From: Candidatus Omnitrophota bacterium
GTDB lineage: Bacteria; Omnitrophota; Gorgyraeia; Zapsychrales; Fredricksoniimonadaceae
Length of the DNA stretch: 64,000 bases
Direction: 5' to 3'
Assembly: GCA_015232565.1 (NCBI GenBank)
Contig: JADFZK010000004.1
Span: 11,907 to 75,906, forward strand
Under the pieces are notes generated by a model. The model worked only from the letters and a program-made list of their open reading frames with translations. It did not search any database and was not told the DNA's origin. Made by a program: the position numbers and the translations under genes. Position 1 is the first letter of the stretch. Each line of letters begins with the position of its first letter. Shown here in pieces: positions 40,872-44,143 of this stretch.

Positions 40872-42512
40872 TTAACGCGCGGACCGCGCGAAACGGGCGC
40901 CGTAAACAATGCCTGCCGCAGGGTCAAACCGGGCCTTAAGCCCATCCCTGGCAGGGTCTTTGGCCGCGAAATCCCGGGACGATACCTGAAAAGAAAGAGC
41001 GCTTCCGGACTGATAATCACCTCCGCGATATCCTATGCCGCTTGTCCCAACGACACCACCTGATTGTTGATAACCTGGCCAATCACTATTTGTTGCATTG
41101 CCTTCAAAACCAGTCAATGTTGCTACTTCCCCATCTCCATGAGAACCTATGAATTCAAGGCCTTGCGAAACACCTAACGATACTACGGGCTCAGCCACAT
41201 TGCCGGAAAGCTCCATATTGCCATACTTTCCCGCACCACTCATCTCCCGGCTCGAAGTATTCTCGGAAAATATCCCCACTCGTAATGGGCCTCTTTGACC
41301 GGCGGCCAAACCATCATCGCGGCCATCTCCGGTAGTCCACACTGCATCGTTGCGATTCAAATTTGCCGCGCCGTTAATTATCACTTCGGTACCATCCTCG
41401 TCCTGATTAGGCGGAAATATCTGGTCGGCCCCGGCGGGCTTGGCCGAATCATAGTTCATCCTCCAGGCCAGCTCATTGGCCACCGGCTGAACCAAGCCGC
41501 GGGCGGCTTTCTCAAATTCCAACTCGGTCATCGGGCGCAAGCCGGCCCAATCCGCATATGCCGCGGCATCTTGCCAGGCGATATAACTCATCGCCCGGGC
41601 AGGACGTTTCGTTTCCGCCGGAAGATTGGGATTAGCCGAGTCCCAGGAAATAGTATTACGATTAACAACGTCATCCGAACCCTTTCCCCCCAAAGAAGAA
41701 GAGCTGCTAGCCGTAATATCACGATTCATTTTCGCCGGTGGAGATAAAGTATTAAAGAAATTCACCCACTCTCCCTCGGTAAGTTCATACTTCATCAAAT
41801 AAAACGACTTATAACCGTTAGGAAATGAATTCAATATTCGAAATTCCTTACCACTTGCATACTCACCATTCGCCCCTGAACTTTGGTAAAAATATCCGCT
41901 ATCCGGCGTATTAGTAGTCATGAAACCGGCATCAGAAGAAATATACCATGGCAAGTTACCCTTATCATCGCTTGCATAACCTTGTTTAAAATGATACGGC
42001 GACGAACTGGGTCCGTCACCGGCAAAAAAGGCCCCGTCGGGAATATAAACCATCTCGATACCAAAAAGCCTGGTAAGGGTATTGGCCGCTTTGGCCGTAG
42101 CCTCACTCAACCCGGCCGCTTTATAATCCCAAACAAACTTTATATCTTTAGCATCAACTGTGCCCGACATAGTACCATTACGCCGAAAGAAAAAACCCTT
42201 ACTGTCTTCCGGCACAAAAGCCTCGAAGCCCGATGGCAAAACAAAACCAGCCGGATTAATTCCTGAACCATACATGCTCGCATGATGCCAGGTCTTGCCC
42301 GCATCAGTAGAATATTTCATAAATATCCAGGCCGCATCATGTGAAACCCCGTCACGCCAGCTGTTTTCCTGTTTAAGGTTAAAAGTGAAGGTCATCGCCC
42401 CCGCTCCGTTAGCGGAAACTTCGTCAAAGCCGGAAAGTGAAAGGTTATTAGCAGTTACGGGCGAAGTGAAACCGATCAATAAAGCAAAAAGCAGGCAGGT
42501 TTTTTTTAACAT
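40872..42512 (-). CDS. Secreted FGE-sulfatase-fold (SUMF1/GldJ/GldK/PorK-like) domain protein, paralog B
   Basis: 546 aa; signal peptide; C-terminal half has the FGE-domain core [34 protein letters not shown] (cf. VSW.dA.aYc.W...RLPTEAEWEyAARG); N-terminal beta-rich module with [13 protein letters not shown] shared with the neighbouring paralog. Confidence 0.7.
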   Translation of the reverse strand: [546 protein letters not shown]

Positions 42513-42544
42513 AGGCTCTTTTGTAGGAAGTTTTAAGTGTTGAT

Positions 42545-44143
42545 CTACTGTCCGTCGACAGTCCTAACCCCGCGGCCGCCGGTAGCCGGGCCGCCATTAG
42601 CCGTGACCAGCGCGGCCTCAGTGCGATCGGAAACCTGAAGGCGGCCAACGCCATCCTGCCAGGAACCACCGCGTAAACCAGCCCCGACCGACGCCACGAC
42701 ACCTTTGGTCGTGTCGGAGCCCATGCCCGGCCAGCCGGCAACATCGGCATTGCCCTCAGATCCGGGAGTGGTCGTTAAATAGCCATTGCCATTAGCATAA
42801 CCATTCTTTTCGTTTACCGCCAAAGCCAAACCCTGAGCATTACCAATGGTTACGGCCCACTCTTTAAGATTTCCGGAAAGCTCCATCTGGCCATATTTAC
42901 CGGCGCCAGCCGCGATCCGGGTGGAATTCGGAGTAGAAAATATTCCTGCCCGTAAGGGGCCTTTTTGATACTCCAACCCCTTTACAGCATCGCCGCCGGT
43001 TAAACCCGGCTCAGCGAAACTGGCATTGGCATTCAATGTAGTCACCGTCTCAGTACCATCTTCCTCCACCGCGCTAAGTGCGGACGCTGGTATAGCGACC
43101 TTGTTCCCCCAGGCAAATTCGCCGGCTAAGGGCAACGCCGGACCGCGCGCAGCTTTCTCAAATTCCAATTCCGACCAGGGCCGTAAGCCCGCCCAATCCA
43201 GAAAAGCGCACAGATCCATCCAGGATAAATAACTGACGGCCCGAAAAGGACGCTGGGTAGAACACACCAAAGGCGACCCCGAGCAGGCTACAGTATTCCG
43301 GAAAACCACCGCATCCGAATTCTTATGTGAAGCATTGGTAATATCCCGACTCACACGAGCCGCGGCCGGCAAAGAATTCACAAACTCGACCCACAAACCC
43401 TCGGTAAGTTCGTATTTCATGGCATAAAAAGCACTATAACCTTTGGGGAAATCCTGGGGAATAACAAAAGAAGCCCCTGAAGGCGCCTCGCCGGGGTTAT
43501 CGCCGGAAACATAGTAATAACCGCCATTGGCAACCGCTGAAACAGTAATCGGCGCATTACTTTCGATATTCCACGGATTAGTATCGGCTGAGCCTTTCCT
43601 TAAAGAAGCATTTGCCGAACCCTGATCACCGGCATAAAAAGAGCCCGCTGGTATCAAAACCATTTCCAGCCCTACCACATTAACGGCAATAGTAGTGTTC
43701 TCGGCAAAACCACAATTACTGTAATCCACGGTGACCTTGACATCGGACGAGGAGAATGACGAAATGTCTTTATGCGCCAGCGGACGGATAAACGCCCCCA
43801 CTTTATCTACGGGAACATAAAGCTCGGCATTATCATTCGTTCCGGCCGCTGAACCCGCCGGAGCAACGCCCGAGGCGATCAGCTTGCACAGCCGTTTCTC
43901 GCCGGATGCCGCGCTGGTATCGAACAAACGCACCGTCAGCCAGGCGGCGTCATGATTAACCTTGTTCCGCCAGGAATTGTCCCAGGAAACATCAAAGAAA
44001 ACCGTTACGGTCTTGGCTTGCGGATCGCGGGCGCCCAGACGCACATTTGAAATATTAAGATTATTGGCCAGAACATTAGAGGAGAAAAATATTGAGGCTA
44101 AACCAATCCCGAAGAGTACGAAAACAGCCCTGCAGTTACCCAT
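42545..44143 (-). CDS. Secreted FGE-sulfatase-fold (GldJ/GldK/PorK-like) domain protein, paralog A
   Basis: 532 aa; signal peptide; [34 protein letters not shown] and FAWGN motifs; N-terminal [13 protein letters not shown] module; GAGG RBS 6 nt upstream of the ATG. Confidence 0.7.
   Translation of the reverse strand: [532 protein letters not shown]

Follow-up and report, generated by a model that had tools for sequence, protein, structure and literature searches.

A tandem pair of secreted FGE-fold proteins lacking the catalytic Cys pair accompanies a giant repeat protein in an Omnitrophota type II secretion cluster

Introduction

Omnitrophota are abundant, uncultured and ultra-small bacteria, and they are thought to live by attaching to other cells or by preying on them. 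The pair of proteins described here bears on the open questions of how this attachment is achieved and what roles their giant genes play. The pair, FGE-A and FGE-B, is encoded in a stretch of 64,000 nucleotides (hereafter the window) of contig JADFZK010000004.1 (assembly GCA_015232565.1) from a Candidatus Omnitrophota bacterium. Both proteins have the fold of formylglycine-generating enzymes (FGEs) and carry signal peptides, both have lost the FGE catalytic residues, and their tandem genes lie in a conserved neighbourhood, between genes of a type II secretion system (T2SS) and directly before the gene of a giant protein made of NW repeats. From structure and synteny we infer a function: the two proteins may form a non-enzymatic heteromer to which the giant protein is docked, or by which it is held, during its T2SS-dependent display on the cell surface, a tentative reading in which we place a little less than even confidence.

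The pair is found across the phylum, and its ties are with a single class of giant surface proteins and with a secretion cluster that includes an unusual F-type ATPase. It thus provides, as a defined module of seven to fifteen genes, a handle on how Omnitrophota deploy this class of giant surface protein.

Architecture of FGE-A and FGE-B

FGE-A (532 amino acids; NCBI MBF0386516.1) is encoded at 42545..44143 and FGE-B (546 amino acids; NCBI MBF0386515.1) at 40872..42512, both on the minus strand, as are all window genes mentioned below, with a spacer of 32 nt between the two open reading frames (ORFs). The tandem ORFs reported in a preliminary description of this DNA are confirmed, and at 41% identity over 527 residues (BLASTP, E=2e-102) their products are paralogs. 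NCBI has entries for the exact proteins, which are encoded on a contig of 104 kb in the metagenome-assembled genome of a 'Candidatus Omnitrophica/Omnitrophota bacterium'; there, both are named 'SUMF1/EgtB/PvdO family nonheme iron enzyme'; family records at JGI bear the automatic label 'formylglycine-generating enzyme required for sulfatase activity'. The Pfam family FGE-sulfatase (PF03781) matches the two proteins at 47.2 and 39.9 bits (gathering score 23.3), with only partial coverage of the model.

FGE-A consists of a signal peptide (approximately residues 1-26, cleavage between VLA and NN), an N-terminal beta-sandwich module (approximately residues 26-150; 43694..44068) and an enlarged FGE-fold domain (approximately residues 151-532). 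The corresponding parts of FGE-B are a signal peptide at residues 1-21 (cleavage between VTA and NN), an unannotated beta-sandwich module at residues 22-145 (42078..42449) and an FGE-fold domain at residues 146-546. A site for signal peptidase I, cut between AxA and N-N-L, is present in 117 of 122 aligned family sequences and a lipobox within the first 45 residues in none, which bears out the earlier proposal of cleavable signal peptides without a lipoprotein Cys. The motifs quoted in the preliminary description are present, a 15-residue one in each protein and a 30-residue one in FGE-B; however, the one presented there as a C-terminal FGE core lies in the middle of the chain, at residues 310-339. 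In A-type proteins, four Cys are conserved throughout the clade, at positions equivalent to residues 78, 133, 290 and 299 of FGE-B; these could form disulfides in an extracytoplasmic compartment.

An AlphaFold2 model of FGE-B, computed with an alignment of the 122 family sequences, reached a mean predicted local distance difference test (pLDDT) score of 92 and a predicted template-modelling (pTM) score of 0.92. It contains a signal-peptide helix (residues 2-14), a low-confidence linker (residues 16-21), a beta-sandwich (residues 25-128) and an FGE-like domain (residues 146-546) that has insertions and spans approx. 400 amino acids versus approx. 280 in true FGEs. The high pTM score argues that the sandwich and the FGE-like domain pack rigidly against each other in the modelled protein. 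When the model was compared with the PDB by Foldseek, the best matches were OvsA, bacterial FGEs and EgtB (E-values of 3.5e-6 to 8e-4, target TM-score of approx. 0.5), with FGEs found at E~1e-5 and a probability of 1.0.

The common beta-rich N-terminal half that had been noted earlier is therefore seen as a discrete sandwich in the FGE-B model, and the word 'novel' then applied to it is fair in the sense of unannotated: no Pfam family matches it above cut-off and it has no sequence relative in the PDB. Its only Foldseek match of note is a weak, generic one to the CLIPPER adhesin domain 9IFR (E=4.8e-3). The module of B-type proteins contains an Asp-box (S-x-D-x-G-x-T-W) in 58 of 61 sequences, versus 0 of 61 for A-type proteins; in FGE-B itself it reads YSTDAGKTW. 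A sub-threshold match to the Pfam family Tli3 is driven by this Asp-box. A profile of the module detected no homology to the giant protein termini, the neighbouring membrane protein p443, the GspC-like protein or the secretin, and gave no match to the tetratricopeptide repeat (TPR) protein of the same cluster.

Loss of FGE catalytic residues

When the family profile was aligned with PDB sequences, the motif RGGSYLCHDSYCNRYR of S. coelicolor FGE, with its two Cu-binding Cys, fell opposite a Cys-free RGGD/S-(Y/W)-Q-x-G stretch of the family (RGGDf..adssa.rlq in the family profile). Only two Cys in total occur in this stretch across the 122 aligned sequences, and none of the sequences has the Cu-binding C-x4-C pair, so that the non-catalytic nature suggested in the preliminary description holds as far as FGE activity is concerned. 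More broadly, no His or Cys is conserved throughout the family, as no such column exceeds 61% in these sequences. The DinB domain, which provides the three-His iron site of EgtB-type enzymes, has no Pfam match in FGE-A or FGE-B, and an NCBIfam scan (E<=10) returned only marginal matches to EgtB (21.4 bits, cut-off 360) and SenA (19.7 bits, cut-off 420). The earlier statement that no sulfatase is encoded here also stands: none was matched by Pfam among the window ORFs scanned, and the motif [CS]-x-P-x-R is absent from every window ORF of at least 150 amino acids.

A canonical FGE role is rejected on the grounds of the absent Cys pair and the lack of a sulfatase in the window, and an EgtB/OvoA-type enzyme on those of the absence of a DinB domain and of a conserved His. 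Judged by these sequence features, FGE-A and FGE-B are not formylglycine-generating enzymes. The database names, which make of the pair an iron enzyme or one that matures sulfatases, are wrong, and their correction covers well over a thousand proteins.

The residues that are invariant in the family (E153, D166, E217, K241, K277, R285, R306, E376, R422, E441 and R513) fall mostly within motifs found across the FGE superfamily, namely MVxIPxG, KYE[LV]T, WAG-R-P-TE-E[WF]E-A-RG, RGG and GxRxxR, and because these motifs are general to the superfamily the residues may be read as structural.

Linkage to the giant repeat gene

The neighbourhood of the pair was surveyed in ORF maps of 80 non-redundant related loci. 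A recurrent gene order emerged, which runs S41 peptidase, small delta-like protein, GT2, DUF2304, GT2, GspC-like protein, secretin, TPR protein, FGE-A, FGE-B and NW-repeat gene. Two full-length FGE genes are present in 64 of the 80 loci, and single-copy variants are seen in L064 and L073. The NW-repeat gene directly follows the last FGE gene in 66 of the 69 loci with room downstream, and of the 70 loci with room upstream, 67 have a secretin gene no more than 2.5 kb upstream. The FGE pair is linked most tightly to the giant gene, because in loci L066 and L072 the FGE gene or genes remain with the NW gene although no secretin gene is adjacent. Of the earlier suggestion that the pair has a structural or processing role tied to the giant gene, the tie is thus borne out, while the role itself would follow from genomic context.

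In the window, the giant gene is an ORF of 10,962 amino acids at 7855..40743, with a probable ATG start at 40731. Its product comprises a signal peptide, a conserved N-terminal region of approx. 330 amino acids, the NW repeats and a coiled-coil C-terminus, and neither end matches a Pfam family. There are 798 NW dipeptides, spaced by exactly 13 amino acids in 792 of 797 intervals, and the repeat consensus is G-[IV]-N-W-[TS]-D-[ILV]-x-x-[LM]-[ST]-x-x. Both the N-terminus and the repeats recur in orthologs, whose contigs mostly break within the gene. A complete ortholog (L044:11636-14239) has 868 amino acids and 33 NW dipeptides; the length of NW-repeat proteins ranges from 868 to at least 10,962 amino acids, and the number of repeats differs more than 10-fold between species. 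The giant protein of the window lacks transmembrane segments and is built of 13-residue repeats, in contrast to the 'Archaeovorins', which have multiple transmembrane segments and a SecA domain.

Several further features of the giant ORF can be recorded. An exact internal duplication of 518 amino acids links residues 1819-2336 and 2703-3220 at an offset of 884 amino acids, which equals 68 repeats, and a higher-order periodicity of 364 amino acids (28 repeats) is apparent around residues 4,600-6,500. The G+C content is 0.39-0.45 within the ORF and 0.50-0.55 in its flanks. The sequence N-W-[TS], found in approx. 58% of the repeats, fits the N-x-S/T sequon, though this could be a coincidence.

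The surrounding type II secretion cluster

Upstream of the pair lie genes for a secretin of the GspD/PilQ family (45098..46672; Pfam E=3.4e-48), for a GspC-like bitopic protein (46669..47289), which has a weak match and overlaps the secretin start by 4 nt, and for a secreted coiled-coil and TPR protein (44234..45097), which abuts the secretin gene and shows weak matches to PilW/Tgl-like (pilotin-type) proteins. Downstream, beyond the giant gene, come p443, which encodes a conserved membrane protein of 443 amino acids, an atypical F-type ATPase set and the 5' portion (1..1087) of a gene for a secretion ATPase of the GspE/PilB type, which continues beyond the window start. The order giant gene, p443, ATPase, GspE is repeated in L044 and in the metagenome locus L083; the latter was located by an alignment-based metagenome scan with p443, a single-sequence p443 scan having given nothing. 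Past the ATPase, L083 encodes GspE (552 bits) and GspF (324 bits), each the best match and below the equivalog cut-off, then an HExxH-like protein and finally GspG, whose 145 bits exceed the curated cut-off of 88.85. Given the gene order of the window and the continuation of L083 to gspF and gspG, the FGE pair and the giant gene, along with p443 and the ATPase, sit inside a T2SS cluster, between gspC-like/gspD/TPR and gspE/F/G. The locus type accordingly holds GspD, GspE, GspF and GspG together, with gspF and gspG seen in the orthologous locus L083. FGE-A and FGE-B themselves show no match in Pfam or NCBIfam to Gsp components (C-O, S or A/B).

Partnership and distribution of the family

A-type and B-type proteins form separate clades, and the order of their genes is kept in approx. 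55 loci; in approx. 10 divergent loci both copies are closer to the B clade. Moreover, in five relatives (P0349, P0324, P0382, P0365 and P0244) two units, each consisting of an N-terminal module and an FGE-like domain, are combined in a single chain. The lineages of these proteins are apparently richer in Ala, Gly, Pro and Arg than that of the window. Since the linkers between the units are hydrophilic and contain no internal signal peptide, the chains are genuine fusions rather than read-through artefacts. Such a Rosetta-stone pattern supports the idea that two module-FGE units may act together.

Searches of a word-indexed database at E<=1e-5 returned 2,553 relatives of FGE-B and 1,609 of FGE-A, with best matches 69% identical, and nearly all named relatives are from Omnitrophota. 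At least 569 species-representative genomes contain a relative. The labels of the best 80 genomes are mostly Omnitrophota, and the remainder are 'uncultured Planctomycetales/Planctomycetia' or 'uncultured bacterium', together with one record each of Elusimicrobia, Patescibacteria and 'Candidatus Elulimicrobium' (labels as deposited). When 1.84 billion proteins were searched with a profile of the N-terminal module alone, 1,954 cluster representatives matched at E<=1e-3. Most of the 150 matches listed are approx. 500-600 amino acids long, and all 17 longer proteins examined contain an FGE-like domain; as far as these sequences indicate, the module is almost always joined to an FGE-fold domain. 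Other relatives of the module-FGE unit are fused to CBM9-like, beta-propeller, or hydrazine-synthase-alpha (HZS-alpha)/cytochrome c domains. In P0359 (1,221 amino acids), for example, an FGE-like unit, an N-module and a second FGE-like unit occur together with hydrazine-synthase-alpha (in the middle of the protein) and cytochrome c domains; this architecture shows that the unit is reused in very different extracytoplasmic proteins outside the cassette.

A possible docking role and its rivals

According to the proposed mechanism, FGE-A and FGE-B would be exported by Sec and would be non-enzymatic, with the repurposed FGE (C-type-lectin-like) fold and the beta-sandwich module offering a surface for binding or docking. 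The two proteins would form a heteromer dedicated to the giant NW-repeat protein, which they would keep in place or dock within the cell envelope, while the Omnitrophota T2SS, encoded by the gspC-like, secretin and TPR genes upstream and by gspE, gspF and gspG downstream, would display it on the surface. The physical pairing of A with B, their attachment to the giant protein, the secretin or both, and the compartment where these contacts are made are predicted from the data given above. A docking function has a precedent in PorK, GldK and GldJ, which have the FGE fold, have lost both catalytic Cys and serve as docking hubs in a secretion and motility machine (PMC12421860).

Several observations weigh against such a role. 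The pair could equally be cargo of the T2SS. AlphaFold2 applied to a segment of 20 repeats, with 39 in-register segments as the alignment, yielded an uninterpretable model (mean pLDDT 51), and without a modelled repeat fold there is no structural rationale for recognition of the giant protein by the pair. Lone FGE paralogs occur away from any NW gene in L065, L077 and L082, and the fusions to CBM9-like and beta-propeller domains hint at the binding of extracellular ligands. Furthermore, many Glu, Arg, Lys and Tyr positions are invariant, which makes a chemistry other than that of FGEs conceivable.

If the pair is cargo, FGE-A and FGE-B would be exoproteins secreted by the T2SS together with the giant protein, acting as lectin-like anchors, as partners at the base or tip of an NW fibre, or as binders of host or prey glycans. 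We regard this as less likely than docking. In its favour, both proteins carry Sec signal peptides but lack a membrane anchor, the C-type lectin fold is the origin of the FGE fold, the Asp-box of the B-type is a motif frequent in glycan-handling proteins, and relatives carry the CBM9-like and beta-propeller domains mentioned above. Genes for T2SS cargo, such as pulA, often lie within T2SS clusters, the conserved GT2-DUF2304-GT2 genes are located just upstream, and the pair is more tightly linked with the giant gene than it is with the secretin. However, no carbohydrate-binding family was matched above threshold, and the cargo and docking readings overlap in that both envisage non-enzymatic binding to the giant protein. 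It is less probable still that the two proteins are enzymes with a chemistry distinct from that of FGE and EgtB, which modify the approx. 800 G-x-N-W-x-D repeats or another envelope substrate. Peptide-modifying oxidases are common in the superfamily, the peptide motif bound by FGE is extended and unfolded, and directly downstream there is a gene for a putative substrate in which identical motifs number in the hundreds; the many invariant charged residues and the NCBI label as a nonheme iron enzyme point in the same direction. Against this stand the absence of any conserved Cys or His for a Cu or Fe site, the missing DinB domain, and the placement of most invariant residues in superfamily motifs that, on our reading and from what is known of the family, are structural in known members. 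That FGE-A and FGE-B are ordinary sulfatase-maturing FGEs, as the Pfam FGE-sulfatase match and the JGI automatic annotations would have it, has a negligible probability: the catalytic Cys pair is absent in 122 of 122 sequences, the window encodes neither a sulfatase nor a C/S-x-P-x-R motif, and the pair resides in a secretion cluster in approx. 70 genomes.

A bolder reading can also be put forward, which we consider a long shot. In gliding Bacteroidota, the FGE-fold proteins GldJ and GldK operate with the giant adhesin SprB, and Mycoplasma mobile employs an F1-like ATPase together with giant Gli proteins. By analogy, the FGE pair could be the track or anchor of a hitherto unrecognised machine for surface attachment or motility in Omnitrophota, in which a T2SS-derived envelope conduit and an embedded F-type rotary ATPase devoid of an a-subunit drive or position a giant NW-repeat 'leg'. 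If true, such a machine would be a convergent mix of Bacteroidota gliding and Mycoplasma mobile gliding.

Comparison with known systems

Like PorK (PDB 9OTS), GldK and GldJ (PMC12421860), FGE-A and FGE-B have an FGE-like fold with large insertions that lacks the catalytic Cys, and they are exported to the envelope; in both cases the proteins are encoded with an outer-membrane secretion machine and are tied to very large, repetitive surface proteins. The presence of two FGE-fold proteins in one machine likewise recalls GldJ and GldK. In contrast to these Bacteroidota lipoproteins, the pair comes from Omnitrophota, is accompanied by a T2SS secretin rather than Sov and the T9SS (type IX secretion system), has a lipobox in 0 of 122 family members and possesses the additional N-terminal beta-sandwich module. 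Families of the T9SS (PorL/M/N, Sov) had no match in any scanned window ORF. The gliding and T9SS machinery with which the pair had first been compared thus gives way to that of a T2SS cluster with a secretin in an Omnitrophota host.

NCBIfam presumably holds models of GldJ and GldK, and its scan with FGE-A and FGE-B returned only EgtB and SenA. No PorK chain was found in the PDB profile search at E<=10, nor is 9OTS among the 50 Foldseek PDB matches listed (36 at E<=1e-3, all enzymes), the presence of 9OTS in the database copy being unconfirmed in both searches. Kinship with GldJ, GldK and PorK, to which the earlier comparison pointed, is accordingly not upheld: membership in that group and a Bacteroidota/T9SS context are rejected in view of the Omnitrophota host, the lack of a lipobox and NCBIfam matches confined to weak ones to EgtB and SenA. 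By sequence and fold score the pair is nearer to catalytic FGE, EgtB and OvsA, which suggests that the FGE fold was repurposed independently outside Bacteroidota, where it would have arisen anew as a docking element of surface machines.

FGEs proper (SUMF1; bacterial 2Q17, 5NXL and 6MUJ) are among the best sequence and structure matches of the pair, with which they share the fold and the motifs WAG-R-P-TE-E-[WF]E-A-RG, RGG and a terminal G-x-R. They differ from FGE-A and FGE-B, which have no Cu-binding Cys pair and no sulfatase partner but have a domain of approx. 400 amino acids with insertions, the N-terminal module and a secretion-cluster context. A pentapeptide-repeat protein of cyanobacteria co-purifies with PilQ nozzles, in which it has been proposed to form an extra periplasmic ring (PMC12475490). 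FGE-A and FGE-B are similarly non-canonical, lineage-restricted and secretin-linked, although their link would follow from gene order alone and the folds are unrelated. PvdO, which we take to be another non-catalytic FGE-fold protein, has a different genomic context and different partners. The same distinction applies to the T6SS (type VI secretion system) immunity proteins, in which a non-catalytic FGE fold is used as a periplasmic protein-binding or accessory module (bioRxiv 10.1101/2021.05.21.445229).

Within Omnitrophota, loci with a 'symbiotic' F-type ATPase and type-4a-pilus genes have been described (Seymour et al. 2023, PMC10066038), as have T2SS-like loci adjoining giant genes (West-Roberts et al. 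2023, bioRxiv 10.1101/2023.11.21.568195). The window locus resembles both in its combination of a secretin/GspE/F/G-type machine, a divergent F-type ATPase and a giant gene. The words 'sulfatase', 'formylglycine' and 'secretin' are absent from the texts of these two studies, and a 2026 preprint on complete Omnitrophota genomes (bioRxiv 10.64898/2026.06.07.730766) contains neither sulfatase or FGE terms nor 'secretin'. No description of the FGE-fold pair was found in the Omnitrophota literature searched for FGE, sulfatase or secretin terms.

Other genes of the locus

The p443 gene (6517..7848) ends with a stop that overlaps the start of the ATPase alpha gene by 4 nt. Its product has a lipobox-like N-terminus (IIAGC), two internal repeats of approx. 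190 amino acids, coiled coils and a C-terminal transmembrane helix; it matches no family, and orthologs are encoded at the same position in L044 and L083. The adjacent atypical F-type ATPase set (1107..6520) comprises, in an unusual order, genes for alpha, epsilon-like (4738-5013), c and c' (c-like; 4501-4722 and 4267-4497), fused b/delta-like (3443-4201), gamma and beta subunits, and no a-subunit was seen in the F-type set of the window. The alpha subunit scores 506 bits on the atpA equivalog model (cut-off 484) and 379 bits on the model of the Mycoplasma gliding ATPase. It is probably the counterpart, in this locus, of what Seymour et al. 2023 called a 'symbiotic F-type ATPase'. A further delta/OSCP-like gene of 116 amino acids (49433-49783) is located 43 kb upstream of the ATPase set, before the GT2 genes. 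In L083, the HExxH-like protein encoded between gspF and gspG (L083:19661-20473) is a secreted protein of 271 amino acids with weak matches to HExxH metalloproteases (SprT/flagellinolysin-like).

A scan of the intergenic stretches for promoters and terminators yielded nothing above shuffled expectation. In most related loci the GT2-DUF2304-GT2 trio (47406-49452 in the window) immediately precedes the gspC-like gene, and a link to glycosylation of secreted proteins or of the envelope is possible. In L003 an AAA_16/AAA_22 ATPase is encoded just upstream of the gspC-like gene (L003:4256-5149), and ORFs of approx. 300 amino acids occupy the same place in L064 and L073; this ATPase, which resembles the secretin-assembly factor ExeA/GspA, is absent from the window. 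Farther upstream, the window encodes a protein of 1,088 amino acids with a partial match to GH149 beta-1,3-glucan phosphorylases (56166-59432) and a PilZ-domain protein (61849-62343). Genes for pilZ have also been reported near giant genes of Omnitrophota (West-Roberts et al. 2023, bioRxiv 10.1101/2023.11.21.568195).

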